In this document: positions 5,704-28,855 of the stretch, piece after piece | Position numbering within the stretch: position 1 is the first letter of the stretch | How the letters are laid out: each line of letters begins with the position of its first letter | Source: Cytophagales bacterium | GTDB taxonomy: Bacteria; Bacteroidota; Bacteroidia; Cytophagales; Cyclobacteriaceae | Direction: 5' to 3' | DNA: 64,000 bases | NCBI GenBank assembly: GCA_038229375.1 | Contig: JBBRON010000027.1 | Location: 92-64,091 of the forward strand | Program-made: the position numbers and the translations under genes | The notes under the pieces: model-generated | Told to the model about the DNA's origin: nothing | Seen by the model: the letters and a program-made list of their open reading frames with translations, nothing else | Databases searched by the model: none

Positions 5704-5705
5704 TT

Positions 5706-6269
5706 TTACTCTATTCCATAAGTGTTCAGCATCGCTTTGTATTCTTTTGAATCTCTCCTTCTAAGCGATTCTGTCTCCACCAATTTCTGAATCTTTATTA
5801 CTCCGTCAATGATCTGTTCAGGACGTGGCGGACATCCCGGCACGTAAACGTCCACGGGGATGATTCTGTCGATACCCTGCAATACACTATATGTATCGAA
5901 AATGCCACCGCTTGATGCACATGCCCCAACGGACAATACCCACCGCGGCTCGGCCATTTGCTCATAAACCTGACGCAACACTGGGCCCATCTTCTTCGCG
6001 ATGGTACCCATGACCATCAGGAGGTCCGCCTGACGGGGTGAAAAACTCAATCGCTCTGAACCAAACCTAGCCAAGTCATAATGCGCTCCCATGGTCGCCA
6101 TGAATTCAATTCCACAGCATGAAGTGGCAAAAGGCAAAGGCCAAATTGAGTTTTTTCGAGCCAATCCAACAACTTTTTCAAGCCGGGTGGCAAAAAACCC
6201 AGCCCCTTCAAGGCCTTCTGGTTTTTCCGCTATCTTGATATCACCCGTCGCTGTACTCATAGTTAACAT
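5706..6269 (-). CDS. nuoB: NADH-quinone oxidoreductase subunit B (PSST, N2 cluster)
   Basis: [17 protein letters not shown] and VPGCPPRPE cysteine motifs. Confidence 0.95.
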
Positions 6270-6660: not shown

Positions 6661-7056
6661 ATAATCTAACGATAAAAATATCCTTTTCTAAGGTACCATA
6701 ATAATTAAACGCATCAAATAATTGGGATCCCAGTGTGAAATACCAGATTCACCTTTCATTGATTTCATTTAACCTAACGATAATGCAATGGTGTGAAGGC
6801 CCTGTGAACAACAGGTTGGCCAACAGTTGTAGTTTTTACATTATTTTCTACTTTATAGATAGTTAATTAATATGCTCTTATTCAGATAGTTAATATTAAT
6901 TATTTCCATTTCTTTTTCACTAGCTATTTCCGGCCGAACGCACTAAAAATCTTAAACATTACGTTCTCCTATTTTGTAGTTATTTTTGCCGCCGCGAATA
7001 GAATGAATACAAATAAACTATCAAGGACAGTGAATTACTATCATGATCAATCGGGC

Positions 7057-8130
7057 ATGAAAATGAAAGTTAGAATAGTGCTCTTAGTAATCACAATCGC
7101 TGGGTTTCCTGGATTATTTTCTTCCTGTGATAATTACGTGTACACAGCGCCGGCTAACGTCCGGCCATTATCAGACAAAATCTCGGAGGCTATCAAGCTC
7201 CTGACCGCAACGGTAGAGGGAGCTGGCACCGGAGAAAATGTACGGGGATCCAAGACCATTCTTGCCAGTAGTATAACAATTGCTCAGAATGTCTACGACA
7301 GAAACGCCAAAGTTGGTGTACTACAGGCCGATGTTGATCAGGCGATCGTCGATCTTGACGCGGCTGTGATAAAATATAATAGTTCGCTGGTGCCTACCGT
7401 TGACCTTCCCAACCTGATCGGTCAATGGACCCTCGACAATATCACTGACACGAACAACGGTGAAACAGTACCTGATCATTCGGGAAACGGCAGGGCGGGT
7501 ATTATACGGGCTGGAAATCCATTTTGGGGTCGCGGCACCCCTACCTTCGGAACGGATCGTTATGGTATTTTTGCAAAATCGCTGCACTTCAACGGTGGAG
7601 CGAACATAGAGATCCCCTACAATTCGGATATGAATTCTCCAAGCCTCTCGATATCGCTATGGGTGAAGACAGACTCGACACGTTTGACGAACAGGAATAA
7701 TAAGGTTGCTGTGTCATTGAACCGTTCAAATGGATATCAGCTCGCTTTTGACATCGTTGAAAAATCAGTATTAACTGTTAATCCTCAGGCAAGTCCCGGA
7801 TCTTATATTACTGATAATGCCGCTACGATTGCAGAAGCTATGTGGAAACATGTTGCCGTTACTTTTGGCGACGGCCACATGAGATTCTATTCGGATGGTG
7901 TTTTAATAAAGGATGCTGTGCAATCCGGAACGATTATCACTCAGAATCCTTCCGTAAATCTTGTCTTTGCACAAGATCTGCCAACAGATTTGTATTCTTC
8001 AAATCCGGTGAGTCCATTTTACGTGAATACCGGTGGATATTTCTCCGGCTACCTGGATGAAATCCGTGTTTATAAATCGGTGCTTACTGCGGAACAGGTT
8101 GCAAAGATTTACGCGATCGAAAAACCTTAG
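7057..8130 (+). CDS. LamG/concanavalin-A-like lectin domain lipoprotein with an Ala-rich helical (FIVAR-like) N-terminal module; paralogue of 21272..22348
   Basis: Signal peptide plus lipobox (MKMKVRIVLLVITIAGFPGLFSSCDN). The LamG-type C-terminus ends LDEIRVYKSVLTAEQVAKIYAIEKP, against LDEVRMYKSVLTASQVTSIYTVEKP in the paralogue. The ORF-track start at 7003 extends upstream of the signal peptide, so 7057 or 7063 is the more likely start. Confidence 0.75.
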   Translation: MKMKVRIVLLVITIAGFPGLFSSCDNYVYTAPANVRPLSDKISEAIKLLTATVEGAGTGENVRGSKTILASSITIAQNVYDRNAKVGVLQADVDQAIVDLDAAVIKYNSSLVPTVDLPNLIGQWTLDNITDTNNGETVPDHSGNGRAGIIRAGNPFWGRGTPTFGTDRYGIFAKSLHFNGGANIEIPYNSDMNSPSLSISLWVKTDSTRLTNRNNKVAVSLNRSNGYQLAFDIVEKSVLTVNPQASPGSYITDNAATIAEAMWKHVAVTFGDGHMRFYSDGVLIKDAVQSGTIITQNPSVNLVFAQDLPTDLYSSNPVSPFYVNTGGYFSGYLDEIRVYKSVLTAEQVAKIYAIEKP

Positions 8131-8161: not shown

Positions 8162-11100
8162 TTACTCCGTCTTTGTTCCCCCGAAATCCTTCGGATGACA
8201 ATGGAACATCTCATTAAATGATTTGTAAAAGTAAGAACGGCTATTAAAGCCCGTTTCATCAATCACTTCTGAAACACTCATACTGGAGTTTTTCAGCAAG
8301 TCAGCAGCCTTTCGCAAACGATACTGCTTTATCAATCCATGTGGAGTAAGTCCGGTGATAGTCTTTACTTTTTTATACAAAGAAGCTTTACTCATTCCAA
8401 CTTCTTCAGCAATGGTATCGGCATTGAATTCATGTTCATTCAGATGCTTTATGATGCATTGCGTTATTTTTGAAAAGAACGTATCATCCGCTTCACTTAT
8501 TCCAGTAGAAATCGGATGAAGCTCCAGATCAGCGAAATTCTGAAACTTCTTTCGTGTTAGTTCCATCCGTTCGATCAATTTCTCGATTCGGATAAAAAGG
8601 TGCTCAGGATGAAACGGCTTTGGGATATAGGAGTCAGCACCCACCTGCAGTCCTTCGATCCTGTTTTCAATTTCACCTTTGGCAGTAAGCAGAATTACGG
8701 GAATGTGACTGGTTTGAATGTTTTCCTTTATTTTTTTACAGAGCGTCAACCCATCCATATCAGGCATAAGTACGTCGGTGATTACAAGATCAATTCGCTC
8801 GTCCTCCAGAATGAAAAGGGCTTTTTTTCCATTAGATGCCTTGTAAATCAAGTACTTATCTGATAGTATGTTCCCAAGCAGTGAAGTGATTTGCGCATTG
8901 TCGTCCACTACAAGGACAGTATAGGGATTCTTTCCAAGCACCGTATTTGCAAATCTCTCAGGTTGATCAATCAGAAGGTGATCGGTCTCAAACTCAAGGG
9001 ATATTTTCTCGACCAGATTAGAGGCGGGAAGTAAAATAGGCTCTTCATCCAACGCATCTGGATACGCTTCTTTAACGCCTGGAATGATGACAGTGAATGT
9101 GCTCCCCTTTCCTGGTTTACTTTCAACATTGATTTCACCCAGGTGAATTTGAACCAGGCTTTTGGTAAGCGAGAGACCAATGCCAGTACTCTTTGCCAGA
9201 CCGTTGATATCGCTTAGTTGTGTAGGATTCTGGTAGAAGCTCTCGAATATTTTATCTTGATTCTGTCTAAGAATTCCTACGCCATCATCTTTTACCGAAT
9301 AAATCACTTTGCCATTGACACCCTTTAACGAAACGGTTACTCTTCCGCCATTCGTGCTGTATTTAATGGCGTTGGATATCAGATTGATAAGTATTTTTTC
9401 AATTTTCTTACCATCAACAAACGCCGGAAGTGACTCAGGCCCCGGATGAAATTCAAGTGATATCTCCCGCTCTGCTGCATAATGGTGAAAGGATTCAATC
9501 ACCTTTTGAGTAAAGGGAACAAGATCCAACGATGATACCTTCAGCGCGCCTTTTCCGCTTTGTATTTTACGGAATTCGATAAGTTCTTCAATTAGTTTTT
9601 GGAGACGCAATGAATTACTATAGATGGTCTTTAGCTGTTTGATTTCTCCCGAATTGTTGTTTTTCTGAAGAAGCGAGGTCACGGGACCAAGGATCAGCGT
9701 CAGGGGTGTCCGGAATTCATGGGCAATGTTTGTAAAGAACTGGAGTTTATAGTCATTCAATTCTTTCAGTTGACTAGCTCTGAATTTATCCATAGCCATC
9801 AATTTCTTTGCACGCAGTCGCCAACGGATATAAAGAATAATTCCGACCTGGAATCCAATGGCAAGCAGTACATATAAGAAATATGCCCAGGATGTCTTCC
9901 AGAAAGGTGGTGTTACGATTATTCGAATGGCTTTCGGGACAGCGTTCCATTCCCCATTTTCATTGGAGAAATTTATAAATAGTGTGTATTGACCGGGAGA
10001 GATGTTCGTAAACGTGACAGATTGCTGCTGGCGTATGTAGTTCCATTCCTTGTCGAAATTTTCCAGAAAATAAGAGTATTCACTTTTTTGTTTGTTCCAG
10101 TAATCGAGGGTAGTAAAGAAGAAGCTTATGAAATTTTGATCGTAGTTAAGCGTGATTTCATCGGTGACGTCAATATCATCTCCTAGAATTTGAGTAGCAT
10201 CGCCCGGCCGTACACTGGTATTTCTTATTTGAAAATCGGTGACAGTGAGCCTTGGAAAATAATCGACTGTATTTAATTTAGCTGGGTATGCTATATCCAG
10301 TCCGTCAATTCCTCCGAAGAAAAGCTTCTCGGAACCTTTGGACTGAAAAACAGCACCATCGGTAAACTCATTATTCTGAAGGCCATCGTTGGTGTCAAAA
10401 GTTTTAAACGAGTTTTTCGCCCGATTATATAGTACCAGGCCGTGATTCGTGGAAATCCAGATGTTTTTGCTGGCATCCTCAAGAATTCCGTGAATCGTAT
10501 TATTTGGCAATCCTTCATGCTCTCGATAGTGCTCAATCCGATACGGCCTTGTCTTGAGATTTAATCGACTAAGTCCGCCGCTCGTTCCAATCCAAAGCTC
10601 TTCCTCAGTGTCAATAAGCATGCTGAGTACATCATTGTTGCATAAGCCGTCGTTGTCGGACACGTTTGACTGAATATGTTCTTCAATTTGCCGGGTCAAC
10701 GCATTGTAACGATAGATACCACCTCCCCGGGTTCCAAACCAAAGCGTATTGGGCTTTTCTTCAATCACCGAATACACAATGTTACTCTTCAACGATGCCT
10801 CGCCGGTCGTTCCCGAATGATGTATCTGATCAAATTCCTTAAACCTGTAATTTCCGGAAGGTGCTTTAACTACTTTTAGGTGTATGACGCCATGACCGCT
10901 TGTTCCCAGCCAGATATCATTAAATGCATCAATGCAAATTGAATAGACTGAACTGAAAGAAATGTCACCCTTGTTTTCAAAATCCGCTGGAAAATGGAAC
11001 ACCTTGTTCGTTTTTGCTTCAATCATATCGATCCCTTCTCCATCGATTCCCAGCCATAAATTTCCATGCTGATCTTTGTTCAGCGCGAGGACGGCGTTGT

Positions 11101-12337
11101 TACTGAGACCTGACTGAGTATTAATTACCCTGGTCTTACCGGCTTTTGATATGATGTTAAGTCCGCCCCCACGAGTGCCTACGTATAACTCCCCATCAGG
11201 ATCTTGATAAACGGACCTGATAATGTTATGGGAGAGGTTTCCTGTCTCAGGGAGGCCGGCCTGGATAGCATAGAACGTCTTTGGTCGGGTAAGAAATTTA
11301 TAAACGCCATCGCCATCAGTTCCTACCCAGAGCAGATCCTGGTCAGTTTCAGTAATGGCCAGAATTTTAATTTTTGCCAGCGAAAATGCAGGGAAGTGGG
11401 AATTCATGGTCTTCAACTGAAAACCGGAGGGCGATTTGGTGACTTTAAATATGTCTCCTTCCTCTGTTCCAACCCATAACGAAGAGTGATTGAGACTTTC
11501 AGAAAGTGTCGACACCAGTACATTGCCCAGCTTTAATGTCTCTGGCGCTTTTTCAATCTGGCCAAGGTTATACAAAAGCAATTCACCATTTGCACTGGCA
11601 ATAGCCAGATAGTGGTCCGTACCGATATGAATGAATTTATGATACGTGAATTGTCCTGGTGAAACTAACTGTTTACTGTAAACCACTCGGTTATTTACAG
11701 TGCACACCAACTTGCCATCACTGCCCAATAAATACAGCAAGCCCTGGTGATTTCCAAGGTCGATTACGGAGGCAAGCCAATCAGAATCAATCCCTTCAAA
11801 TTTTACAGGTAAGAATGCATCTTCTTTTAGGGAATAACGGCTTATGCCTTTGCCGATCATACTCACCCATATCGCTGAATCAGAACCAATACACGCTCTT
11901 AGGTTATATTCAAGAAATGGAATGTCATTGAGACTATCAAGATACGTTTGAAAGGTGTCTGTTGTGCGATTGTATTTATTTATGCCCTGGTGAGTAACGA
12001 CCCAAAGATTCCCATCGCCATCTTCAAGGAAGGTCCGGATTACATTATTGCTAATTGTTCCTTTAAGAAAAGGATCGGGTTTATAAACTTTAATAGAACT
12101 TCCATCATAGAGATTAAGGCCGTCCCAGGTGCCCAGCCAGACATGATCATAACGATCCATGTAAACAGAAGTGATGGCGCTATTAGAGAGTTTTGACTGC
12201 TTGGAAACGTGCTGGAAAGGCCAAGCAGAAGCAGAATCTTGTTCGAAAAGACCAGTAAAGAGAGAAAAGAGCAGCACACACAGACTCATACGCCTAATCC
12301 AATTCCACCATAAACCTACCTTTTCCATCGATAACAA
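8162..12337 (-). CDS. Hybrid two-component system regulator (HTCS): periplasmic beta-propeller/Y_Y_Y sensor, TM, HisKA, HATPase, REC and AraC-type HTH
   Basis: Repeated propeller-like segments (LWVGT/LWIGT/LWFGT), H-box FTNIAHEFRTPLTLILGP, ATPase G-box GIGLSLTKSLV, receiver LVITDVLMPDMDGLTL, C-terminal AraC HTH (SLYKKVKTITGLTPHGLIKQYRLRKAADLL). Confidence 0.95.
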   Translation of the reverse strand: MLSMEKVGLWWNWIRRMSLCVLLFSLFTGLFEQDSASAWPFQHVSKQSKLSNSAITSVYMDRYDHVWLGTWDGLNLYDGSSIKVYKPDPFLKGTISNNVIRTFLEDGDGNLWVVTHQGINKYNRTTDTFQTYLDSLNDIPFLEYNLRACIGSDSAIWVSMIGKGISRYSLKEDAFLPVKFEGIDSDWLASVIDLGNHQGLLYLLGSDGKLVCTVNNRVVYSKQLVSPGQFTYHKFIHIGTDHYLAIASANGELLLYNLGQIEKAPETLKLGNVLVSTLSESLNHSSLWVGTEEGDIFKVTKSPSGFQLKTMNSHFPAFSLAKIKILAITETDQDLLWVGTDGDGVYKFLTRPKTFYAIQAGLPETGNLSHNIIRSVYQDPDGELYVGTRGGGLNIISKAGKTRVINTQSGLSNNAVLALNKDQHGNLWLGIDGEGIDMIEAKTNKVFHFPADFENKGDISFSSVYSICIDAFNDIWLGTSGHGVIHLKVVKAPSGNYRFKEFDQIHHSGTTGEASLKSNIVYSVIEEKPNTLWFGTRGGGIYRYNALTRQIEEHIQSNVSDNDGLCNNDVLSMLIDTEEELWIGTSGGLSRLNLKTRPYRIEHYREHEGLPNNTIHGILEDASKNIWISTNHGLVLYNRAKNSFKTFDTNDGLQNNEFTDGAVFQSKGSEKLFFGGIDGLDIAYPAKLNTVDYFPRLTVTDFQIRNTSVRPGDATQILGDDIDVTDEITLNYDQNFISFFFTTLDYWNKQKSEYSYFLENFDKEWNYIRQQQSVTFTNISPGQYTLFINFSNENGEWNAVPKAIRIIVTPPFWKTSWAYFLYVLLAIGFQVGIILYIRWRLRAKKLMAMDKFRASQLKELNDYKLQFFTNIAHEFRTPLTLILGPVTSLLQKNNNSGEIKQLKTIYSNSLRLQKLIEELIEFRKIQSGKGALKVSSLDLVPFTQKVIESFHHYAAEREISLEFHPGPESLPAFVDGKKIEKILINLISNAIKYSTNGGRVTVSLKGVNGKVIYSVKDDGVGILRQNQDKIFESFYQNPTQLSDINGLAKSTGIGLSLTKSLVQIHLGEINVESKPGKGSTFTVIIPGVKEAYPDALDEEPILLPASNLVEKISLEFETDHLLIDQPERFANTVLGKNPYTVLVVDDNAQITSLLGNILSDKYLIYKASNGKKALFILEDERIDLVITDVLMPDMDGLTLCKKIKENIQTSHIPVILLTAKGEIENRIEGLQVGADSYIPKPFHPEHLFIRIEKLIERMELTRKKFQNFADLELHPISTGISEADDTFFSKITQCIIKHLNEHEFNADTIAEEVGMSKASLYKKVKTITGLTPHGLIKQYRLRKAADLLKNSSMSVSEVIDETGFNSRSYFYKSFNEMFHCHPKDFGGTKTE

Positions 12338-12502: not shown

Positions 12503-13576
12503 ATGCGAGACACCCCATTTCCCGACATCGCGCGGCGCCTCGATCAGAATCCGCTGCTCAAGCCGGTTGATATAATCCCCAGCAGCTCATCAATGACAAT
12601 TGAGTGTCTACTCAATCCAGGCGTCTTTCGATTTAATAACAAGATCTGGCTGCTTGTGCGAGTAGCGGAGCGTCCTCATCAATTGGAAGGACAGGTGAGT
12701 TTCCCAATTTATGACGAAACTGGTAAAATAGAAATACTCCGGTTTGACAAGAAAGATCCGGATCTGGATTTTACAGATCCCCGTGTGATACGGTACAAGG
12801 GAAAGGATTATCTCACTACCCTCTCCCACCTTCGACTGGTATGCAGTGATGATGGAAAGAGATTTTATGAGCCCTATGACTTTCCATCAATTTTTGGAAA
12901 GAATAAGCTTGAAGCATACGGTATAGAGGATTGCCGTGTCACGGAAATAGACGAAATCTATAACCTAACTTACACGATGGTTTCGCATCTGGGTGTGGGT
13001 GTCGGGCTGATTCAAACAAGAGATTGGAAAGTTCTCGACCGCAAAGGAATGATTCTTCCGCCTCACAATAAGGACTGTGCCTTTTTTGCCGAAAAAATTA
13101 ATGGCAAGTATTACTCTCTTCATCGGCCCAGCAGCCCTCAGCTCGGAGGTAATTACATCTGGCTATCGGAGTCTCCCGATTTGCTGCATTGGGGAAATCA
13201 TCAATGTATTGCAACCACACGTGTTGGAATGTGGGATAGTGCCCGTGTTGGCGCGGGTGCTTCACCCATTAAAACTACAGAAGGTTGGCTGGAGATTTAT
13301 CATGGAGCTGATGCTCAGCATCGCTATTGTCTCGGCGCCTTGTTGCTCGATAGCAATGATCCATCTAAAGTTCTTGCAAGAAGTGAAAAGCCGATTATGG
13401 AACCGTTTGCCAAATATGAACTGACCGGTTTTTTTGGAAACGTGGTGTTTACCAATGGCCATTTAGTGGAAGGCGATACGATTCGAATGTACTACGGAGC
13501 CAGCGATGAAGTTATCTGCGGAGCTGAATTCTCCATCAGTGAAATATTAGAAACGCTTCACCCAATTAAGAAATGA
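12503..13576 (+). CDS. GH130 family glycoside phosphorylase/hydrolase (beta-mannoside-type), cytoplasmic
   Basis: GH130/DUF377-like motifs: NPGVFRFNNKIWLLVRVAE, GIEDCRVTE, KDCAFFAEKINGKYYSLHRP, GAGASPI, YYGASD. No signal peptide. The track start at 12476 is a TTG; the first ATG is at 12503. Confidence 0.8.
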   Translation: MRDTPFPDIARRLDQNPLLKPVDIIPSSSSMTIECLLNPGVFRFNNKIWLLVRVAERPHQLEGQVSFPIYDETGKIEILRFDKKDPDLDFTDPRVIRYKGKDYLTTLSHLRLVCSDDGKRFYEPYDFPSIFGKNKLEAYGIEDCRVTEIDEIYNLTYTMVSHLGVGVGLIQTRDWKVLDRKGMILPPHNKDCAFFAEKINGKYYSLHRPSSPQLGGNYIWLSESPDLLHWGNHQCIATTRVGMWDSARVGAGASPIKTTEGWLEIYHGADAQHRYCLGALLLDSNDPSKVLARSEKPIMEPFAKYELTGFFGNVVFTNGHLVEGDTIRMYYGASDEVICGAEFSISEILETLHPIKK

Positions 13577-14838
13577 CTCTCACTGCACTGCTGAAGAAGC
13601 CGAACGAAGAATACGGGTACTTCCTGGAAATGCCCAGGACGATGAGAGTATTGCTTATTACCAACATGATTTATGCATTTGCCTTACCGGTGATTGACAT
13701 CTTCGTTGGGGCGTACATAATGAGGAGTTCGAATGATCCCAAAATCGTTGCGATCTATCAGTTGTCGGTTTACACAGGTATTCCCCTGACGTTCTTGTTG
13801 AATGGATTACTCCTTCGACACGTAAAGATTACAAATCTCTACAGTTTTGGAATGCTCCTTAGTGGCTTCTCCATGCTGGTGATGATGTCCATGCAAAATC
13901 TGTCAATTGCCGGAGTTGGAATAGCAGGTGTATTGATGGGTTGTTCCTTCGGCTTCTTTTGGGCAAATCGAGACCTTCTCGCACTGAACAACACAAATGA
14001 CCTGACGCGAAATTATTACTACGGTCTTGAAACATTCTTTTACACGATTACTTACATCATTGTACCGGTAGCGGTTGGAGCTTTTCTGGCAAATACGGAC
14101 ACGAATGGCTGGTTCAGTGGAAAGATCAATGTTGCTTACCAAATTGTTACTGGCACGGTTTTTTTACTTACGATACTTTCCAGCTATGTCATTCACAAGG
14201 AAGATTTTAAGAATCCAATCCAACGTGAGTTTCTCTTTTTCAAATTTCATAAACTGTGGACAAAGATGCTTGTATTAGCGGCACTGAAGGGAATGACACA
14301 GGGATATCTGGTTACAGCTCCGGCTATTCTGATTATGCGCCTCGTAGGCAATGAAGGATCTGTTGGGTTGGTGCAGGGTGTTAGCGGAGTAGGAACGGCG
14401 ATTATGCTTTATCTGCTGGGCCGCACTACAAAGCCTTCTGATCGCATCTATATTTTTACAGCGGGATTGATAATCTTTCTCGTTGGCGCATTGACCAACG
14501 GAATTCTTTTCTCCGCCATTGGTGTGATGGTATTTGTGCTTTGCAAAGTCCTTTTTACACCCCTTCATGACATCGCTTACTTCCCAACCCAAATGCGGGT
14601 CATTGACGTAATATCAAAAATTGAAAAGAGAAATGAATTTGCGTACATCTTCAATCATGAGTTTGGTCTATATGTTGGAAGATTTTTTGGCCTTGGGCTT
14701 TTCATTTACCTGGACTCCTATGTCTCGGAGAGTTTCGCATTAAAGTATGCGCTCATCATTATTGCAGTCTTGCAACTGGCATCTATTCCAATGGCAAAAC
14801 ATATAATTAAAGAGTGCGACAAACTAAGCAAATCATGA
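13573..14838 (+). CDS. MFS-type transporter (probable oligosaccharide:cation symporter)
   Basis: 421 aa and almost entirely hydrophobic, with roughly 12 predicted helices. ATGA-type overlaps with both neighbours. Confidence 0.7.
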   Translation: MTLTALLKKPNEEYGYFLEMPRTMRVLLITNMIYAFALPVIDIFVGAYIMRSSNDPKIVAIYQLSVYTGIPLTFLLNGLLLRHVKITNLYSFGMLLSGFSMLVMMSMQNLSIAGVGIAGVLMGCSFGFFWANRDLLALNNTNDLTRNYYYGLETFFYTITYIIVPVAVGAFLANTDTNGWFSGKINVAYQIVTGTVFLLTILSSYVIHKEDFKNPIQREFLFFKFHKLWTKMLVLAALKGMTQGYLVTAPAILIMRLVGNEGSVGLVQGVSGVGTAIMLYLLGRTTKPSDRIYIFTAGLIIFLVGALTNGILFSAIGVMVFVLCKVLFTPLHDIAYFPTQMRVIDVISKIEKRNEFAYIFNHEFGLYVGRFFGLGLFIYLDSYVSESFALKYALIIIAVLQLASIPMAKHIIKECDKLSKS

Positions 14839-16619
14839 GCATCACAAATATCACAAAACAATCAGTATCGATTGCCTATTTGAGTGTGATGGCTCTTTGT
14901 GCACTCTGTTTTTCGTCATGCTCATCAAGTGAAAAGCCGGTGACTCAGATCGCTATTAACAGGGTAATAAATATGCCTAATCAGCCTGAGCCTTATAAAA
15001 TGACAGACTGGTATGAGAAAGCACGTCACTATGATCAATACGTATTCAATGCTGAACTGAAGGGCGATTTCATGCCCTTTCTGTGGATTGACAGTGCCAA
15101 ACGGAATATTCCCCAAAATACTTTTGGGTTGTATACAGTAATCGGCGATGTGCGCCAGGGCGCTAATGGAAGTAAAGAGTTTCACGAAGCGCTGACGACC
15201 ATGGGTTCACTTTTCAGTGCTGGCCTGGTTGGCATTGACAAAACAAATCAGAATGGAATGAACTATGTGAAGATGACTCAGAATTATTTCAATTCCGGAA
15301 ACGGTTGGAATATCATGATGAACAATACATATCCTGGTGTAGCACTGCTGGGTGGTGGGTACGGCCGCGACTGGTGGTACGATGTGTTTCCAAACCTACT
15401 ATTTTATGGTCTATGTGAATTGTATCCGGGTGTTTCACAAGCCGACAGCCTTCAGCATATCATTGCCGAGCAATTCTTCAAAGCAGATTCAGTCCTGAAA
15501 GGAAATTATAACTATTCCTTCTTTGACTATGGCAAGATGACGGGTGTGTCGAACAACATCCCCCATCAGCAGGATGCTGCGGCAGGCCACGCGTACATAT
15601 TGTTATGCGCTTACGAAAAATTTGGAGATGAGCGATATCTGAAGGGTGCCATTTCCGCAATGGATGCATTTGTAAGTCAAAAGGAAAGTAGATTTTATGA
15701 AGTACTAATGCCTTTTGGTGCGCTTGTGGCTTCACGTCTTAACGCCGAGCATGGAAAAGATTATGACGTAAAGAAAATACTTGACTGGACGTTTGATGGA
15801 TGTAAAGCTGCCGATGGACGGACGGGCTGGGGAGTAATTGCTGAACGATGGGGTGATTACGATGTTTCTGGTTTGCAGGGAAGTATTACCGATGGCGGTG
15901 GTTATGCTTTTCTGATGAACTCATTTGACATGGCCTGGCCTCTGGTGCCGATGGTCCGCTACGACAGCAGGTATGCTGAAGCTATTGGCAAGTGGATGCT
16001 GAATGTTACCAACGCTGCCCGGCTATTTTACCCCTATGAAATTGACGACAAACACCAATGGCTTCCCGAAAGGAAAGAGATAAGTAAGAATGTCATTGCT
16101 TATGAAGGCCTTCGTAAAGTAGACTACACCTACAAGAAGGAGAAACTAAAGGGTTTTACTCCAGTTGCTCTCGGCGACGGACCTCAATGGGTAAAAGGTC
16201 AACCAGAGACGTCCATGTTTAGTTTATATAGTTCGGCCCAGGTTGGGATTTTTGGCGCGATGGTGAGAAAGACCAACGTAGATAAAATTCTTCAGCTTAA
16301 TTGCAATTCGACCGATTTCTACCAAAAGAATTCATTGCCAACTTTTTTATACTTCAATCCTTACGATACAATTAAAACGGTGTGCTTTTATAATTCTACC
16401 TCATCAGAGGTCGATTTATACAACGTCTTAACCCATGAATATTTGATGAAAGAGGTTTCGAAGGATGGATGTTTTGCTATACCCGCTACAGGTGCAATTG
16501 TTCTGGTTGTGATACCAGCAGGAAGCGCCATCAGCAAAAAGAATAATCAATACAGGGTTGGTGACAAAGTGATTGCTTACGATTATCCTCTTTCAACAAA
16601 CGAAGTTTCTACTCATTAA
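14835..16619 (+). CDS. Uncharacterised PUL lipoprotein, enzyme-like domain; paralogue of the N-terminal ~560 aa of 22444..25560
   Basis: Lipobox MALCALCFSSCSSSEKP. Alignable blocks with the paralogue: NRVINMPNQPEPYKMTDWYEKARHYDQYVF vs NRVEQMPNMPAPYKMRNWKEVAVKYDQYVF; DWWYDVFPNLLFYGL vs DWWYDVMPNIFFYQL; YAEAIGKWMLNVTNAARLFYP vs FARAIGKWTLNLANASRLYYP. I recognise no family. Confidence 0.8.
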   Translation: MSITNITKQSVSIAYLSVMALCALCFSSCSSSEKPVTQIAINRVINMPNQPEPYKMTDWYEKARHYDQYVFNAELKGDFMPFLWIDSAKRNIPQNTFGLYTVIGDVRQGANGSKEFHEALTTMGSLFSAGLVGIDKTNQNGMNYVKMTQNYFNSGNGWNIMMNNTYPGVALLGGGYGRDWWYDVFPNLLFYGLCELYPGVSQADSLQHIIAEQFFKADSVLKGNYNYSFFDYGKMTGVSNNIPHQQDAAAGHAYILLCAYEKFGDERYLKGAISAMDAFVSQKESRFYEVLMPFGALVASRLNAEHGKDYDVKKILDWTFDGCKAADGRTGWGVIAERWGDYDVSGLQGSITDGGGYAFLMNSFDMAWPLVPMVRYDSRYAEAIGKWMLNVTNAARLFYPYEIDDKHQWLPERKEISKNVIAYEGLRKVDYTYKKEKLKGFTPVALGDGPQWVKGQPETSMFSLYSSAQVGIFGAMVRKTNVDKILQLNCNSTDFYQKNSLPTFLYFNPYDTIKTVCFYNSTSSEVDLYNVLTHEYLMKEVSKDGCFAIPATGAIVLVVIPAGSAISKKNNQYRVGDKVIAYDYPLSTNEVSTH

Positions 16620-16623
16620 GGCT

Positions 16624-19600
16624 ATGAAGAAATATTACACTCTCATGATTTTACTGGTAGCGTTGACCACCGGGCCATCGTTTGCGCAGACGATGCTCAA
16701 GGGAACCATTACTGGTGGCAAAGAAACCCTTGTTGGAGCCAATGTTTATTTAAAGGGAACAACGCGCGGCTCTGTGACAGATGTTAACGGAAAATTCTCT
16801 TTGGAATTACCGGAGGGGATGAAGGATTCTACTCTTGTGATTTCATTAGTTGGTTTTAAATCCCAGGAGCTAAGCATCGGATCACGCACCCAGTTTGACG
16901 TTAACCTTGAAGAGAATCTCGAATTACTGTCGGAAGTCGTTATTGTTGGATACGTCGCACAACAACGAGAAAGTATTACCGGAGCAGTCAACACTGTTAG
17001 CGCAGATGTGATCAGCAGATTGCCGCTTCCAAGTCTTGATCAGGCATTGCAGGGAAGAGCACCTGGAGTAGTAGTAACTCAGAATACCGGCGCGCCTGGA
17101 GAAGGAGTTGCGGTAAGGATACGGGGGGCCGGTTCGGTTAACAGTGGTAATAGTCCCCTTTATGTTGTCGACGGCATTCCTACTCAGGATATCAATACCA
17201 TTTCAACTCAGGACATCGCCAGTATAACTGTCTTAAAGGATGCGGGAGCTACAGCCCTTTATGGTTCACGTGCAGCCAATGGTGTTGTGATCGTAACAAC
17301 GAAAATGGGCTCGGTCAGCACTCCAAAAATTCAGATTAGCAGCCAGGTGGGTGTGCAAAGTATAAGCCGGAGTATTGCGATGGCAAACACCGATCAGTAT
17401 GTGTCGATTTATAATGAGGCTGCTGTTAATGACAATGCAGGAAAAAATCCATTGCTGTTTCGTCCACTTATCACAGAAGCGATTAAAGCTGGATTACCCA
17501 ATGTGAATTGGGTGGATGCAATTATGCGCGAAGGAGTCATCCAATCTCACAGTTTATCTATTTCAGGTGGCGAGGGAAAGACGCGTTACTTCATTTCTGG
17601 AAACTATTTCGATCAGCAAGGTATTATCAAAAGCAGCGACTACAATCGGATTAGTGCCCGTGTTAATGTAGATACCGAAGTAAAAAAATGGCTGAGGACA
17701 GGTATCAATTTGAACCTTACTAAAGCCGCCACCAATCTAATAGGAAGCTCGGGTGATGGTGCGGGTGGAAACGGAGGTAGCGTAATCCGTTATGCGTTTT
17801 TCAGGACCCCTGCTATTCCAATCTATCAAGATAATGGTGACTTCACCGACAAACCAGATCGCTATGACCTCTTCGGCGATGGATACAATCCTGTCGGAAT
17901 GCTGGCTTACAACAATAACAAGCTTATTTCCAATAGGGTATTCGGAAAATACTTCGTTGAACTTTCTCTTTTTGAAGGATTTAAATTCACATCAAATGTT
18001 GGTATTGACATTACCAATTCCAATCAGCGTCGCTTCGATCGCAACTGGGGAACAGGAGGTCGTATCAATGGTATCAATCAGCTAACGGTAACGGATGCCC
18101 AAAACACATCACTCACGTTCAGTAACTATGCAACGTATGTCAAGTCATTTGACAAGCATCATTTCACATTTCTTCTCGGTACTGAATCAATTAAGATCAA
18201 GAATTATGCATTTAATGCTACTGAAAAAGCCTATCCCGATCAGACAAATGACCTTGTTTATCTCGGCAATGGCGTTGGACAAAGAACGACAAACGAAAGT
18301 AAAGCAGGCAACTCACTCCTCTCCTTCTTTGGCAAAGTCAACTACGACTACAATGAGAAATATCTAATTACGGCAACTCTCCGTCGTGATGGTTCGTCAC
18401 GATTTGGTGCTGAAAACCGGTGGGGAAATTTTTACGCAGGGTCAGTGGGTTGGAGACTTGACAAGGAAGCCTTCCTGGAAAACAACACCACCATTGATAG
18501 ATTGCTTTTACGTGTTGGTTATGGTGCTATCGGAAACCAGGATATTGGTAACTATGCCTACACAGATGCCATTACATCGGTGTACAATTATCCATACAAC
18601 AATGCGAAATCAGTTGGCTACGTGGTATCCGGACTCGGCAACAGCAAATTGAAATGGGAAACCAGTAAGCAACTCAATGTCGGTATTGATATAGAAATGT
18701 TTGATGGCAAGTTCTCAGCTTCCCTCGATTACTTTGATAAGATTACCAGCGACCTTCTTGTCCGGCAGCCGATTGCGTCATCCAGCGGAGAAGACGATGG
18801 TGGTTTCCCACATTTCATTTACTTCAACAATGGAAAAGTTCAAAATAACGGAGTTGAATTGGCGCTCAATTATGCTGATCATGTTGGCGACTTCCGATAT
18901 TCTATCAGTGCAAATGCGGCGACACTTCACAATGAAGTCCTGGCGATTAATTCACCGATTTCAGGTGGTGCCGTCGGATCCGACAGGCTTACCAGAACGG
19001 AGGCAGGCTATCCAATCGGTTCGTTCTACCTCTATGAAATGGAAGGAATATTCCAGAACGCATCAGAAATATTTACCCACGCATTTCAGGGAAATGGAAT
19101 TGCAGCGGGTGATGTAAAATTTAAAGACCAGAATGGAGACGGTAAAATCGATGGCAATGATCGCGTACATGCTGGAAGTGCCATACCAAAGGTAACAGCT
19201 GGATTGAACTTCACTCTTAATTATAAAAACTGGGATATGTCTGTCTTTTTTCAAGGTGCTTATGGTCAGAAGATTTTCTCCGTTCTTAATCGTGATATCG
19301 AAGGATTTTATCGACCGTTCAATGTGACAGAACGGTACTTTCAAGGTCATTGGACCGGCGAAGGGTCCACCAACGAATTTCCTCGTGCGTCATGGGATGC
19401 GTCGGGCAACAACACCAAATATTCAACACGGTTTCTGGAAGATGGATCGTACACACGTCTTAAGAATCTTCAGGTGGGATACAATTTTCCCGCGAAAGGA
19501 ATAACGCGATATGGTTTCTCTGCACTTAGAATCTATTTCTCGGGCACTAATTTATTTACCTGGACAAAGTATCAGGGCCTGGATCCTGAAATGACTGTCA

Positions 19601-19701
19601 GCAACAATGCTCAAGGTCAGGGAGACGGATCAGCCGGTCTGGATTGGGGTACCTATCCGGCTGCTAAATCTTACAACGTTGGTATAAACCTAACTTTTTA
19701 A
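16624..19701 (+). CDS. SusC/RagA-family TonB-dependent outer-membrane transporter
   Basis: Signal peptide MKKYYTLMILLVALTTGPSFAQ, carboxypeptidase-regulatory-like domain (GANVYLKGTTRGSVTDVNGKFSL), plug (SITVLKDAGATALYGSRAANGVVIVTTK), C-terminal beta-barrel ending NLTF. Followed immediately by a SusD gene. Confidence 0.95.
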   Translation: MKKYYTLMILLVALTTGPSFAQTMLKGTITGGKETLVGANVYLKGTTRGSVTDVNGKFSLELPEGMKDSTLVISLVGFKSQELSIGSRTQFDVNLEENLELLSEVVIVGYVAQQRESITGAVNTVSADVISRLPLPSLDQALQGRAPGVVVTQNTGAPGEGVAVRIRGAGSVNSGNSPLYVVDGIPTQDINTISTQDIASITVLKDAGATALYGSRAANGVVIVTTKMGSVSTPKIQISSQVGVQSISRSIAMANTDQYVSIYNEAAVNDNAGKNPLLFRPLITEAIKAGLPNVNWVDAIMREGVIQSHSLSISGGEGKTRYFISGNYFDQQGIIKSSDYNRISARVNVDTEVKKWLRTGINLNLTKAATNLIGSSGDGAGGNGGSVIRYAFFRTPAIPIYQDNGDFTDKPDRYDLFGDGYNPVGMLAYNNNKLISNRVFGKYFVELSLFEGFKFTSNVGIDITNSNQRRFDRNWGTGGRINGINQLTVTDAQNTSLTFSNYATYVKSFDKHHFTFLLGTESIKIKNYAFNATEKAYPDQTNDLVYLGNGVGQRTTNESKAGNSLLSFFGKVNYDYNEKYLITATLRRDGSSRFGAENRWGNFYAGSVGWRLDKEAFLENNTTIDRLLLRVGYGAIGNQDIGNYAYTDAITSVYNYPYNNAKSVGYVVSGLGNSKLKWETSKQLNVGIDIEMFDGKFSASLDYFDKITSDLLVRQPIASSSGEDDGGFPHFIYFNNGKVQNNGVELALNYADHVGDFRYSISANAATLHNEVLAINSPISGGAVGSDRLTRTEAGYPIGSFYLYEMEGIFQNASEIFTHAFQGNGIAAGDVKFKDQNGDGKIDGNDRVHAGSAIPKVTAGLNFTLNYKNWDMSVFFQGAYGQKIFSVLNRDIEGFYRPFNVTERYFQGHWTGEGSTNEFPRASWDASGNNTKYSTRFLEDGSYTRLKNLQVGYNFPAKGITRYGFSALRIYFSGTNLFTWTKYQGLDPEMTVSNNAQGQGDGSAGLDWGTYPAAKSYNVGINLTF

Positions 19702-19710: not shown

Positions 19711-21225
19711 ATGATGAAACCACTAATCAGAATAACACTCATCCTGTTTGTACTTGCCATGTCAGGATGTAAAGACTTTCTTAACGAACCTCTTCAGGGA
19801 ACGTACTCAAACGCGACCTTTTACAAAACGGAGGCCCATGCTCTGCTTGCTATCACAGGAGTGTACAACGCCGCGTCGTTTGTCAGCACAGAAAACAATC
19901 TCTGGGTCTTTGGCGATGTGGCATCTGACGATGCAACGAAAGGTGGATTGGCCGGAGATCAAAGTGACATTCAGTTCATTGATGAATTCAACTATGCCCG
20001 GAACAATGCTTCCATTGAAAAAGTCTGGAAGCGTTACTATGAAGGTATCTCGCGCGCAAACTATCTTTTATACTACGGTCCCACAATCGATATGGATGTT
20101 TCACGCCGTAACAGAATCCTGGCTGAAGCAAAATTTCTTCGCGCATATTTCTATTTTAATCTGGTAAACATTTTTGGTGAAATACCGATCAAGCTTAACC
20201 CTCCACTCAATCCGGACGATATTAACAAGCCTACTTCTTCAGTGGCATTGGTATACGCTCAAATAGAAAAAGACCTAAAAGAAGCGATAGCTGTTTTGCC
20301 AAGAGTTTTTTCTGGTTCAGACCTCGGCAGGGCACCAAAAGGTGCAGCCTGGGGACTTTTAGCGAAGACCTATCTCTATCAACAACAGTGGCAAAGCGCT
20401 TTGACGGCAATTGATTCGATTAATGCTATTGGCATCTACAGCCTTCAACGTGTTTACAAGAATAACTTTATTGATTCTACTCAAAACAATACTGAATCCC
20501 TTTTTGAGATCCAGCATATCAGCGGACAATCTCCAAAACTAGACAGTTATTTGAATCAATACTTCTCCCCATCCAAAGACAATGGCTATTTCTTCGACGC
20601 GCCACTCAAAAACTTTGTCGATGAATTCGAAAAAACAGCAAGTGATATTCCTGACCCACGCCTTGATTACTCTGTGGGTAGAAAAGGGCAAAAGTGGGTT
20701 AACGGGGAAGAATTTGATCCCATTATTTCAGGTGGTCCTCAGCCGCCAGCGTGGTCACCGACGGGGTATCTCAGCCGAAAGCACGTACAGCCAAAGAAAG
20801 AAGAACCACTTCCAGGATATTCCAGCATGAACTATGTGTATATGCGATATGCTGATGTTTTATTAATGAAAGCGGAGGCATTAAACGAATTAGGCAGAGG
20901 TGCTGAAGCTCAAACTCCCCTGAACGCTGTGCGCAAACGGGCACGCGAAAGTTATCTGTTCGACAAAGATCTCACGGGATTTGGAGCGATACCGGCCGGG
21001 CTTTTACCCGATGTAGTTACTGCAAATCAGACCAATCTGAGAACCGCGATTCAGCATGAGCGGCGGGTGGAGCTAGGGCTTGAGTTTCATCGCTATTTCG
21101 ATCTCATGCGTTACGGTAAGCAAACCGCGGAAGCAGCCCTCGGATCCGCAGGCTTTAACTACGATAAGCGATACTTCACAATACCTCAATCAGAACTTGA
21201 TACGAATCCAGCTATTACCAAATAA
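19711..21225 (+). CDS. SusD/RagB-family nutrient-binding outer-membrane lipoprotein
   Basis: Lipobox LAMSGCKDFL, SusD-like blocks (WKRYYEGISRANYLL, RAYFYFNLVNIFGEIP, MRYADVLLMKAEALNELG, ERRVELGLEFHRYFDLMRYG). Confidence 0.95.
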   Translation: MMKPLIRITLILFVLAMSGCKDFLNEPLQGTYSNATFYKTEAHALLAITGVYNAASFVSTENNLWVFGDVASDDATKGGLAGDQSDIQFIDEFNYARNNASIEKVWKRYYEGISRANYLLYYGPTIDMDVSRRNRILAEAKFLRAYFYFNLVNIFGEIPIKLNPPLNPDDINKPTSSVALVYAQIEKDLKEAIAVLPRVFSGSDLGRAPKGAAWGLLAKTYLYQQQWQSALTAIDSINAIGIYSLQRVYKNNFIDSTQNNTESLFEIQHISGQSPKLDSYLNQYFSPSKDNGYFFDAPLKNFVDEFEKTASDIPDPRLDYSVGRKGQKWVNGEEFDPIISGGPQPPAWSPTGYLSRKHVQPKKEEPLPGYSSMNYVYMRYADVLLMKAEALNELGRGAEAQTPLNAVRKRARESYLFDKDLTGFGAIPAGLLPDVVTANQTNLRTAIQHERRVELGLEFHRYFDLMRYGKQTAEAALGSAGFNYDKRYFTIPQSELDTNPAITK

Positions 21226-21271: not shown

Positions 21272-22348
21272 ATGAAAACAAAAGTTAAATTAATTCTCTC
21301 TATGGCGATCGTCCTGCTCATGGCTGGGATGTTCGCTTCGTGCAAAAAAGACGATGCAGCGGCGCCGGTAGTTAAGACAGGTTTATCTGTTGAAATTGCA
21401 GTTGCCAATGCCTTGATCGCAAGTTCTACCGAAGGAGTTGGTGGTGGTCAGTTTTTGAAAGGATCCAAAGCAACCTTGCAAACAGCTATTGATGCAGCAA
21501 ACGCTGTATTTAACAACGCAGCAGCAACTCAGGCCGCAGTGACAAGTGCCACTGTCAACCTTACCGCAGCTGTTACCACTTTTAACGCTCAGGTAGTGAC
21601 ACCGATTGATCCAACCAATCTCGTTGGTCAGTGGACGTTCGATGAGATTACTGCTACGGCTGAAGGTACAGTTGTTAAAGACTATTCTGGCAATAGCCGC
21701 AATGGAACAGTAAAGACTGGTAATGCATTCTTTGGAGCGGGTAATATTACCCTCGCGGCTGACCGTTACGGTATAGCCGGCAAAGCCATCCATTTTGACA
21801 AGGGTAGCAATGTTGAAATTCCTTACAACACTGCGTTGAATCCGGCAAACATGTCAATATCACTTTGGGCGAAGGCTGATGTGAATTCACCTATCCACAA
21901 TGACAATTACATGATCGCAATGAATCGTTGGAATGGTTATAAGTTGAACTTCCAGTCTGATCCGAAAGCGTTCTTCACCGTTCACGCGACAGACGGAGCC
22001 AATAGCCCAATCTATGACAGAGACAATGCCTCACCGCTTGTTACCCAGGGCACCTGGTGGCACATCGTTGTTACGTTTGGTGGCGGTCACATGGTATTCT
22101 ATTTGAATGGTATAGCTGTTAAAGATTGGGATAATACTCCAGGAACGGCGTTCTCGCTTTCTGCTGCACCTGTCAATCTGGTCTTTGGTCAGGATTTGCC
22201 AACCTCTGGCTATTCCAATAATTCTGCCGACCCTAACTATCTGAATTATGGTGGATTCTATATTGGTACGTTGGATGAAGTGCGGATGTACAAATCCGTT
22301 CTTACTGCGTCTCAGGTAACCAGTATTTATACGGTTGAAAAGCCTTAA
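21272..22348 (+). CDS. LamG/concanavalin-A-like lectin domain lipoprotein with FIVAR-like helical N-terminal module (candidate surface glycan-binding protein)
   Basis: Lipobox LLMAGMFASCKKDD. About half of the residues match 7057..8130 across the LamG part by eye. Sits in the SusE/F position directly after susD. The track start at 21080 overlaps susD and precedes the signal peptide. Confidence 0.8.
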   Translation: MKTKVKLILSMAIVLLMAGMFASCKKDDAAAPVVKTGLSVEIAVANALIASSTEGVGGGQFLKGSKATLQTAIDAANAVFNNAAATQAAVTSATVNLTAAVTTFNAQVVTPIDPTNLVGQWTFDEITATAEGTVVKDYSGNSRNGTVKTGNAFFGAGNITLAADRYGIAGKAIHFDKGSNVEIPYNTALNPANMSISLWAKADVNSPIHNDNYMIAMNRWNGYKLNFQSDPKAFFTVHATDGANSPIYDRDNASPLVTQGTWWHIVVTFGGGHMVFYLNGIAVKDWDNTPGTAFSLSAAPVNLVFGQDLPTSGYSNNSADPNYLNYGGFYIGTLDEVRMYKSVLTASQVTSIYTVEKP

Positions 22349-28500: not shown

Positions 28501-28855
28501 CGTATTATCATCTCTCCTTCTTGAAAATACTGGTAAAAGTTTTGTGAAGAAAGAGCTGCCACTTGAAGCACAGTATGCGTCTGTGCATTACGCAGCGTCA
28601 GCCGATATTAATCATGATGGAAATCAGGACCTCATTCTGGGAGGCAACAATATTCATAATCGGATCTATCTTGGACGTGATGACGCAAATCATGGTATGC
28701 TGCTGCTGGGAGATGGGAAAGGAAATTTTTCATATGTAAGCCAAAGTGTTTCTGGATTGAAATTGCGGGGAGATGTGCGGCACATTCTGGTTGATGGCAA
28801 TCGTATTTTATTCGGAATTAACAACTCGTCAGTAAGGACGTATGAATTTGAATAG
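25565..28855 (+). CDS. FG-GAP/VCBS repeat protein with central ASPIC/UnbV domain (CRTAC1-family lipoprotein)
   Basis: Many FG-GAP-type repeats (GDINNDGLQDV, VDINGDGWLDIYV, FDYDKDGDLDMV, DLDDDGDLDLI, FDSDGDGDLDLYV, DFDNDGDLDLF). ASPIC/UnbV block RLQGVPENLSGIGSKIYAYAGNDKYYLEQNPVRGYQSS. Lipobox LLASMISCATD. Confidence 0.85.
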   Translation: MTMRRSTAALFYPIFHAVLLASMISCATDPDTLFSRLNSGTTGIVFRNLLKENDPEFSILGYPYFYNGGGVAVGDINNDGLQDVLFTGNMVKNALYLNKGNFKFNDITTGATLDSFDGWNSGATMVDINGDGWLDIYVCRSGSSKVSERRNLLFINNKDLTFTESAEKFGLDDTGYSTQASFFDYDKDGDLDMVLINQSDPKFARGYQDYMQTRKQIADPALANKLFRNDNGHFVNVSGAAGIRSNIYSFSLGLNTSDINQDGWPDIYIGNDFEEPDYLYINNRNGTFTDSLVAKIDHTSLFTMGVDVADYNNDLLVDIISLDMLPESNYDQKMHMANDNFSRTNFMFQNGVPFQYMKNSLQKNNGDGTFSEIGQLAGISNTDWSWSALIADFDNDGLKDLFVTNGYKRDNTNMEFMGYAMDQSLRIQKGDKAVSVPEYISHMPGISLPNYIFQNDGHDHFSNKAKDWGFNHSTFSHGAAYADLDDDGDLDLITNNTDDDAGIYRNNSERLLKNSFLKIRLQGVPENLSGIGSKIYAYAGNDKYYLEQNPVRGYQSSIATELLIGLGKHLTVDSLRIIWPGDESQSLKELDVNQTITLSISNATRRPRASTTDPTRFFNEVKSIDFVHVENNVNDFTRQYLLPHFLSYTGPCLAKGDINGDGLNDIFVGGAKGQAGAIFIQRKDLSFGQLITPEFDKDRESEDVDAVFFDSDGDGDLDLYVVSGGYEFENNSPLLQDRIYTNDGRGDFSKSPEILPSNLTNKTCVRPVDFDNDGDLDLFIGGGVIPGNYPLASPSKIYFNNGKGNFTSKKPANAALGIVNDAVWIDLNNDGKKDLITAGEWAPLKAFLTEGMLFKDVSTQWFPFPSDGWWNCITALDIDNDGDLDLTVGNYGGNSQLKASEQFPIQLYSMDFDNNGSIDPLITYYNKEESVPLAFRDDLLSQLPFLKKKFNDYTSYAKTTINGVLSSDQMSKSSVLKINVLSSLLLENTGKSFVKKELPLEAQYASVHYAASADINHDGNQDLILGGNNIHNRIYLGRDDANHGMLLLGDGKGNFSYVSQSVSGLKLRGDVRHILVDGNRILFGINNSSVRTYEFE

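Follow-up and report, generated by a model that had tools for sequence, protein, structure and literature searches.

Two paralogous genes in a Sus-like locus

This work concerns two related genes in a stretch of 64,000 nucleotides from a Cytophagales bacterium (assembly GCA_038229375.1, contig JBBRON010000027.1, positions 92 to 64,091 of the forward strand), hereafter called the window, whose shared domain of about 550 amino acids is a candidate new glycoside hydrolase (GH) family within a Sus-like locus of otherwise classical make-up. Both genes lie on the forward strand; the open reading frame at 14835-16619 is named X, the one at 22444-25560 X', and their shared domain is referred to as the family. 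X encodes a lipoprotein with a signal peptide up to Cys29 (FSSC). In the first-pass annotation of this DNA it had been described as a lipoprotein of 601 aa, which is its length if translation begins at the GTG at 14814; the protein is indeed a lipoprotein, but it probably starts at the ATG of 14835, in an ATGA overlap with the stop codon of the transporter gene upstream, and then has 594 aa. X' encodes a secreted protein of 1038 aa with a signal peptide for signal peptidase I (SPI) at residues 1-21, the family domain at residues 23-553 (window 22510-24102), two Ig/PKD-like domains at about 568-729, a LamG domain at 792-940 (PF13385, E 5e-28) and a C-terminal type A sorting domain at 964-1035 (PF18962, E 6e-08; TIGR04183, E 8e-07), by which it is a cargo of the type IX secretion system (T9SS).

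In a BLASTP comparison, residues 36-583 of X aligned with residues 23-553 of X' over 561 columns, with 36% identity and 54% positives (E 1e-107), a paralogy far beyond chance. The first-pass annotation had reported this relationship between the lipoprotein and the N-terminal part of the larger protein, and the observation is confirmed: the span given there, 22516 to about 24124, is close to the computed one, and the four shared sequence blocks that it quoted are all present, although the second was worded incorrectly and its true form is G(R/G)DWWYDV.PN..FY.L.

The gene calls of the window were annotated with Pfam. A hybrid two-component sensor/regulator (HTCS, 8162..12337, reverse strand) is divergent from an operon on the forward strand, in which a gene of GH130 subfamily 4 (12503..13576), encoding a predicted cytoplasmic beta-1,2-mannobiose phosphorylase without signal peptide, is followed by a 12-transmembrane-type transporter with a weak match to MFS_1 of the major facilitator superfamily (MFS, 13573..14838), X, a SusC-like TonB-dependent transporter (16624..19701), a SusD-like lipoprotein (19711..21225), a candidate surface glycan-binding lipoprotein with FIVAR and LamG domains (21272..22348) and X'. 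GH130, MFS and X are coupled by ATGA overlaps at the GH130/MFS and MFS/X junctions; SusC starts 4 nt past X. With its SusC/SusD pair, its HTCS and its glycan-active genes, this is a polysaccharide utilisation locus of the Sus-like type.

Sequence searches and size of the family

Apart from a 34-residue match of X' to C5-epim_C (E 0.012), which is the only Pfam trace and which we read as a generic helix-hairpin signal of toroid proteins, the shared domain had no match among the Pfam-A or NCBIfam models at E<=1 when X and X' were scanned. No chain corresponding to the domain was found when X (594 aa) was compared by phmmer with the PDB sequences at E<=10, or when a hidden Markov model (HMM) built from 99 family members was run against all PDB sequences; the sole PDB matches in the searches with the family concerned Ig-like domains in the C-terminal part of X' relatives. 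The first-pass annotation could place the domain in no glycoside hydrolase, lyase or esterase family and had proposed HMMER against Pfam as a check, and the Pfam-A, NCBIfam and PDB sequences bear this out. In the databases the relatives are named "hypothetical protein" or "laminin G", the latter because of their C-terminal domain. Neither a description of the family nor any endo-beta-1,2-mannanase was found in literature searches, which did not cover subscription journals. The newness of the family is thus judged against Pfam, NCBIfam, PDB and the openly searchable literature, and a CAZy or dbCAN classification could already exist.

The family is large. A word-indexed search returned at least 4189 relatives for X and at least 537 for the X' domain, and at least 589 relatives were confirmed among the matches listed when one genome of each species was scanned. 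When 50%-identity representatives were searched exhaustively, 1040 clusters were found at E<=1e-3, of which 373 reached E<=1e-30. Proteins of up to 2467 aa carry the domain, in N-terminal, middle or C-terminal position, and the source labels include Cytophagales, Saprospirales, Bacteroidales, Ignavibacteria, Gemmatimonadota, Verrucomicrobia, Calditrichia and Marinimicrobia. Chryseolinea serpens, Dawidia, Ancylomarina longa and Dysgonomonas are among its cultured carriers.

Predicted structure and conserved residues

The AlphaFold2 model of X, computed from the 99-sequence alignment, had a mean pLDDT of 91.9 and a pTM of 0.92. Within residues 59-476 it has about twelve long helices; residues 477-585 form an all-beta domain, so that the predicted fold is an (alpha/alpha)6 toroid (about residues 36-476) with a C-terminal beta-sandwich. 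This prediction agrees with the toroid guess of the first-pass annotation, and the segment AAAGHAYILLCAYEKFGDERYLKGAISAMDAF, quoted there as toroid-like, forms the helix pair 248-263/266-280 in the model. A second model, of residues 36-477 alone (pLDDT 93.7), was made to take the effects of domain orientation out of the template-modelling (TM) scores.

Foldseek was then run against the PDB. With the full-length model, GH127/GH146 beta-L-arabinofuranosidases came top (E about 3e-6, TM 0.31-0.37), with a root mean square deviation (rmsd) of 14-16 A. With the toroid alone, the leading matches were YPO2471, GH76 alpha-mannanases, GH116, cellobiose 2-epimerases, mannose isomerase, GH88 and GH127, at E 2.5e-4 or weaker, TM 0.43-0.54 and 10-13% identity. 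The neighbours of the modelled structure are nearly exclusively sugar epimerases and glycoside hydrolases of the (alpha/alpha)6 class, all of them distant; this comparison, too, had been proposed in the first-pass annotation, and it points to toroid enzymes with no close solved relative. We also observed that the second match of the full-length model is a tail protein from the archaeal virus SSV19 (PDB 7xdi_F, E 3e-6, TMt 0.41), which suggests that the SSV19 virion may carry a toroid protein, possibly glycan-degrading.

Conserved carboxylates, the absence of which would count against an enzyme, are present. In the alignment of 99 sequences, the residues that are invariant in both paralogue clades include the acids E118, D179, E289, D377, E424, D448 and D494 and many aromatic residues (W59, W180, W181, Y182, Y268, Y288, W318, W332, Y357, F359, Y376, W387, W409 and Y465). 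Among 133 diverse representatives, the acids conserved in at least 90% are E118, E289, E424, D448 and D494, D179 and D377 being less conserved than these five, and the other residues kept at this level include W181, Y182, Y288, N303, R329, W332, Y357, F359, Y376, Y465 and N508. Neither the 99-sequence alignment nor the wider one, of 134 sequences, contains an invariant or at least 90% conserved Cys or His, nor a conserved DD dipeptide, the conserved acids of the family being all isolated. In (alpha/alpha)6 enzymes the active site is built at the N-terminal ends of alternate helices. In the model of X, E118, D179, E289 and Y357/F359 directly precede the helices 119-131, 180-196, 292-306 and 360-376, respectively, and would accordingly mark the N-terminal ends of alternate helices of the toroid.

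Export and predicted localisation

The two paralogue clades differ in their export signals. In the X clade, the lipobox Cys stands 13-14 residues before the domain in all 33 orthologues with an anchorable N-terminus, and the residues after it are mostly Ser, Lys, Gln or Pro, with 0-1 acidic residue. For lipoproteins of Bacteroidota, an acidic signal for surface export has been described. The LamG lipoprotein of the window (21272-22348), which reads C-K-K-D-D at its lipobox, fits this motif; since the motif is present there and missing in X, we regard X, with moderate confidence, as facing the periplasm. Members of the X' clade have ordinary SPI signal peptides, many of them together with a T9SS sorting domain, and by these signals they are predicted to be extracellular or attached to the surface. 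The first-pass annotation had assigned both proteins to the position of the surface endo-acting enzyme. This remains plausible for X', the likelier surface enzyme given its secretion by T9SS, but is less likely for X, which lacks the acidic motif and is probably periplasmic.

The GH130 partner and the proposed substrate

Characterised GH130 enzymes comprise phosphorylases (Lin0857, Teth514_1788/1789 and Uhgb_MS) and exo-mannosidases. The GH130 of the window is 68% identical to Uhgb_MS (PDB 9erg/9eqq/9erh) without gaps over its full length (E 8e-167), the second-best match being Lin0857 (E 3e-94). Among the NCBIfam models, it scores best with the equivalog for beta-1,2-mannobiose phosphorylase (BtaManbiosPhlase), at 423 bits, under the cut-off of 550 bits. 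The alignment shows that P206, N211 and R242 of Uhgb_MS are kept; these are residues of the phosphate/nucleotide site highlighted in the work on Uhgb_MS (PMC12814180). Full-length similarity together with these three residues places the window GH130 in subfamily 4 (GH130_4), to which Uhgb_MS was also assigned and which, with 889 sequences in CAZy, is the larger of the two GH130 subfamilies in which phosphorylases acting on beta-1,2-mannosides are known (PMC12814180). Uhgb_MS phosphorolyses beta-1,2-mannobiose and, in the reverse direction, makes beta-1,2-mannobiose and mannotriose from alpha-mannose-1-phosphate and mannose, no alpha linkage being seen by NMR; it is reported to be 27-fold more abundant in the microbiomes of inflammatory bowel disease (IBD) (PMC12814180, ACS Catalysis 2025).

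As the GH130 partner belongs to the subfamily of beta-1,2-mannobiose phosphorylases, the guess on the substrate narrows to beta-1,2-mannosides. Of the substrates proposed in the first-pass annotation, the beta-mannoside direction is thus retained in a narrower form, while plant beta-mannan and beta-glucan are not favoured by the GH130 subfamily. The genomic context of Uhgb_MS is discussed neither in PMC12814180 nor in the GH130 diversity paper. GH130 proteins 75-79% identical to it occur in the locus type described here in Dysgonomonas, Tannerellaceae, Porphyromonadaceae and Barnesiella and, judging from this identity, Uhgb_MS itself very probably comes from such a locus.

Conservation of the locus

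The proteins of the window were used in tblastn searches of related genomes, and the 80 best related loci, from Cytophagales to gut Bacteroidales, were compared (loci are numbered with an L below). GH130 is present in 71 of them, MFS in 75, SusC in 75, SusD in 66 and HTCS in 62, in the fixed order regulator, GH130, MFS, X, SusC, SusD, LamG binding protein, X', with the regulator divergent. Co-occurrence of the family with GH130, another check put forward in the first-pass annotation, is therefore found in 71/80 related loci. Considering only the loci of at least 20 kb, 44 of 45 contain GH130, MFS, SusC and SusD together. Both paralogue types recur elsewhere: at least two family copies were counted in 50 of the 80 loci and in 36 of the 45 long ones. 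Conservation is uneven, and informatively so, with 62-78% identity for GH130, falling to about 30% for HTCS and about 28-35% for SusC. A search for further genes recurring within the 80 loci gave only two, a GH13 in 7 loci and, in 5, a protein of 803 aa without annotation. No recognisable glycoside hydrolase other than this GH13 recurs, and the family is therefore, next to GH130, the one conserved candidate for an enzyme.

Some variants of the locus were noted. The GH13 gene, which is full-length (Alpha-amylase, E 1e-129), lies between HTCS and GH130 in L046 (5886-7520) and in six other Bacteroidales loci, and a further GH13 is found directly upstream of the family member in L085 (8445-10001); a GH13 of the alpha-glucosidase type is unexpected in a beta-mannoside locus. 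The 803-aa protein, which has no Pfam match, follows SusD in L039 (15938-18346) and in four other Bacteroidales loci, where it occupies the place of the LamG binding protein. Tandem copies of the lipoprotein type are present in the Bacteroidales loci L047 (8351-11749) and L059 (8184-11620), and tandem copies of the X' type in L089 (2653-7184), a contig labelled Marinimicrobia, where they adjoin a PorV-like gene. In L012 a close orthologue (9992-11719, 73% identity) is flanked by hydrogenase maturation genes (hypB/F/D/E) on one side and cbb3 oxidase genes on the other, and neither GH130 nor SusCD lies in its vicinity.

X' clade members from other lineages were looked up as well (L081-L089). In the Gemmatimonadota locus L081, GH130 is immediately upstream of the family gene, accompanied by a GT4/PMI fusion and a GH94-like protein; in L082 (Saprospirales) the GH130 is 65% identical to that of the window and is found with SusC/SusD. 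An ABC transporter accompanies two GH130 genes in L083, GH130 and GH2 fragments in L084, and in L086 GH130 together with a GH94-like protein and a GH2 that carries beta-mannosidase Ig domains; L087 has two GH130 genes and a GH2. No GH130 was found within the DNA examined for L085, L088 and L089, the last two being short contigs. The presence of GH130 beside the family across phyla and transporter systems suggests an association by function rather than by inherited gene order. The GH94-like proteins (PF17167, 826-838 aa) adjoin the family members in L081 (12561-15041) and L086 (13159-15675), neither of which is a locus of the Sus type. Characterised GH94 enzymes include 1,2-beta-oligoglucan phosphorylase, and such neighbours hint at mixed or alternative beta-1,2 substrates.

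Accessory genes and genomic context

A second paralogous pair in the locus is formed by another LamG protein (7003..8130, forward strand) and the binding lipoprotein at 21272-22348 (43% identity over 365 aa, E 8e-94; both PF13385); the LamG domain of X' is more distant from these two, at about 25%. X' is followed by an accessory gene (25565..28855, forward strand) for a lipoprotein of 1096 aa with nine FG-GAP repeats and an ASPIC/UnbV domain, which is found near the locus in few relatives only, and whose orthologue lies on the far side of HTCS in L004, L008 and L025. Then come a small cupin of 170 aa (28937..29449, forward strand), akin to the C-terminal domain of mannose-6-phosphate isomerase/GMP, and a YdjM gene, which closes the annotated order. 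The cupin is rarely conserved; it also follows the locus in L010 (20658-21455), and a similar domain in L081 (7416-8768) is fused to a GT4 glycosyltransferase adjoining GH130. A role of the cupin in mannose catabolism is possible.

The DNA of the window outside the locus is ordinary chromosomal context, with a GH43 gene (32390-33628, reverse strand), a PLD-like protein (30500-31669, reverse), a DUF3417 alpha-glucan phosphorylase (57505-60174, forward) and part of the nuo (complex I) operon (934-6269, reverse). Words from one sediment metagenome run cover 99% of the window. The search of sequencing runs gave only DNA metagenomes, from sediment and soil, and no expression data.

Proposed function and alternative explanations

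Taken as a carbohydrate-active enzyme tied to the use of beta-mannosides, without further specification, the family domain is quite probably described correctly. We assign a probability of roughly 0.45 to the more precise proposal that X and X' carry unclassified secreted enzymes of the (alpha/alpha)6-toroid type, which act as the depolymerases of a conserved locus for beta-1,2-mannose glycans. That the domain itself hydrolyses beta-1,2-mannosidic bonds, and does so in endo fashion, is a tentative assumption standing somewhat short of even odds. More doubtful is the widest form of the proposal, according to which X and X' represent a new GH family of endo-beta-1,2-mannanases defining a beta-1,2-mannan pathway of wide distribution, with carriers ranging from the Cytophagales of soil and sediment to the Bacteroidales of the gut.

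According to this proposal, HTCS would switch on the operon, and X' would be exported by type IX secretion, held at or near the cell surface and, aided by its Ig-like and LamG domains, would cut the polymer (most simply beta-1,2-mannan) to oligosaccharides. These would be captured by the LamG lipoproteins and SusD and imported by SusC. X, probably facing the periplasm, would trim them to beta-1,2-mannobiose or mannotriose, which the MFS transporter would bring into the cytoplasm, where GH130_4 would phosphorolyse them to alpha-mannose-1-phosphate and mannose. Catalysis may proceed as acid/base hydrolysis by two carboxylates drawn from E118, E289, E424, D448 and D494 or from D179 and D377, which are less conserved.

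Several points weigh against this proposal. The likeness to known hydrolases is at the level of fold class only (TM 0.3-0.5, 10-13% identity), and therefore catalytic residues cannot be transferred from them; that the conserved residues cluster on one face of the toroid is concluded only from their places in the secondary structure, and D494 lies in the beta-sandwich, outside the toroid. The orthologue in L012 is found by itself, amid genes for hydrogenase maturation and cbb3 oxidase. Other points concern the substrate, and these would equally suit a glycoside hydrolase of a different bond, which would free fragments bearing beta-1,2-mannobiose from a heteroglycan or glycoconjugate and leave the beta-1,2 bond to GH130; its targets could be the side chains of yeast phosphomannan, a bacterial O-antigen or exopolysaccharide with Man-beta-1,2-Man, or a gluco-manno polymer. 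Indeed some loci add GH13 (7/80, plus L085), GH94-like or GH2 beta-mannosidase genes, a hint of more complex substrates, and the GH130 proteins of the distant loci are about equally similar to TM1225 (beta-1,4) and to the beta-1,2 enzymes, so that linkage specificity may vary across the family. Moreover, the only beta-1,2-mannoside sources named in the literature found are yeast mannan and Leishmania mannogen, whereas the related loci stem from metagenomes of soil, sediment, groundwater and gut. We nevertheless consider a different bond unlikely, since the core locus, as it appears in 44/45 long loci, has no alpha-mannosidase, phosphodiesterase or other hydrolase to finish a heteropolymer, and two copies of one family with one disaccharide phosphorylase fit a homopolymer best.

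It could also be asked whether the domain is a hydrolase at all. Several polysaccharide lyase (PL) families (PL8/PL15/PL17/PL21) likewise combine a toroid with a C-terminal beta-sandwich, cellobiose 2-epimerases, mannose isomerase and GH88 are among the Foldseek neighbours, and the weak C5-epim_C match in X' points in the same direction, that is, to a lyase or to an epimerase/isomerase of the AGE type modifying a glycan. Such an enzyme seems very unlikely to us: no lyase model of Pfam matched and no genes for unsaturated uronates (GH88/GH105, Kdu-type) are found in the locus or among the recurrent neighbours in the 80 relatives, the His that is catalytic in AGE enzymes has no conserved counterpart in the family, X and X' are exported while AGE epimerases are cytoplasmic, and the downstream enzyme takes a neutral mannoside. 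Hardly probable, finally, is a non-catalytic glycan-binding or scaffold module, with the true depolymerase encoded elsewhere. X' bears further domains of binding type (Ig, LamG) and Bacteroidota loci often have several binding lipoproteins, but this locus already possesses SusD and two LamG binding proteins; a toroid of 550 aa with five carboxylates conserved at 90% or more would be atypical for binding, its structural neighbours are enzymes, and in the core loci there is no conserved enzyme candidate upstream of GH130 other than the family.

Implications

If depolymerisation of beta-1,2-mannose glycans by X and X' is correct, the family would fill the missing first step of beta-1,2-mannoside catabolism, for which no enzyme depolymerising beta-1,2-mannan was found in the literature searches, and it would give GH130_4 a physiological setting. 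The pathway would include the locus type with orthologues of Uhgb_MS, the IBD-enriched GH130, and beta-1,2-mannans would be much commoner in the environment than one would expect from their known sources, Candida and Leishmania. The CAZyme classification would gain a large group (1040 clusters at 50% identity), the enzymes could become a tool to analyse or remove the beta-1,2-mannoside epitopes of yeast cell walls, and the conserved locus could serve as a simple metagenome marker of beta-1,2-mannoside metabolism.

Comparison with known systems

On the basis of the models, the systems structurally nearest to the family are the toroids of the GH76 and GH127 types. GH76 endo-alpha-1,6-mannanases and related proteins (BT3792, PDB 4c1s/6u4z; YPO2471, 7tem) likewise have a single (alpha/alpha)6 toroid and, as proposed for the family, are secreted or lipoprotein enzymes of Bacteroidota mannan loci. 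They are the best Foldseek matches of the toroid-only model (E about 3e-4, TM 0.45-0.52), with 10-12% identity and an rmsd of 7-9 A. They differ in having no C-terminal beta-sandwich and in acting on alpha-1,6 linkages, whereas the family has the sandwich and is proposed to act on beta-1,2. Membership of GH76 was ruled out, as there is no match to Glyco_hydro_76 in Pfam or to GH76 sequences in the PDB, and no adjacent Asp-Asp pair. GH127/GH146 enzymes (HypBA1, Ara127N, BT3674) share with the family the succession of a toroid and one or more beta-sandwich domains, and their superposition on the full-length model, with its low TM values, goes no further than a common fold class; here, too, membership was rejected, in the absence of a PF07944 (DUF1680/Glyco_hydro_127) match at E<=1 and of a PDB profile match, and because a family without conserved Cys has neither the Cys nucleophile nor the Zn-Cys3/Glu site.

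The AGE superfamily (cellobiose 2-epimerase, mannose isomerase) also uses an (alpha/alpha)6 toroid, on C2 of mannose or glucose (Foldseek E about 1e-3, TM 0.43-0.5), but X has an additional beta-sandwich, and identity with these epimerases was rejected for want of a conserved His and of a Pfam match and for the signal peptides in both clades. Toroid polysaccharide lyases (PL8/15/17/21 type) were rejected on similar grounds, with no lyase match in Pfam and no uronate-processing genes as recurrent neighbours. The GH130_4 enzymes (Uhgb_MS, Lin0857) correspond to the neighbouring gene: they are five-bladed beta-propellers, cytoplasmic, and stand at the end of the pathway, while the family has another fold and is exported.

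The GH144/GH162 endo-beta-1,2-glucanases are (alpha/alpha)6 enzymes that cut a beta-1,2 homopolymer to oligosaccharides for phosphorylases and exo-enzymes. Kinship with them was not supported, there being no PDB profile match at E<=10 and no GH144/GH162 protein in the top 50 Foldseek matches. In working principle, they are nonetheless the closest analogues, and the same pathway logic would apply here to the mannose epimer, with GH130 as the partner of the family where GH144/GH162 have GH3 and GH94.

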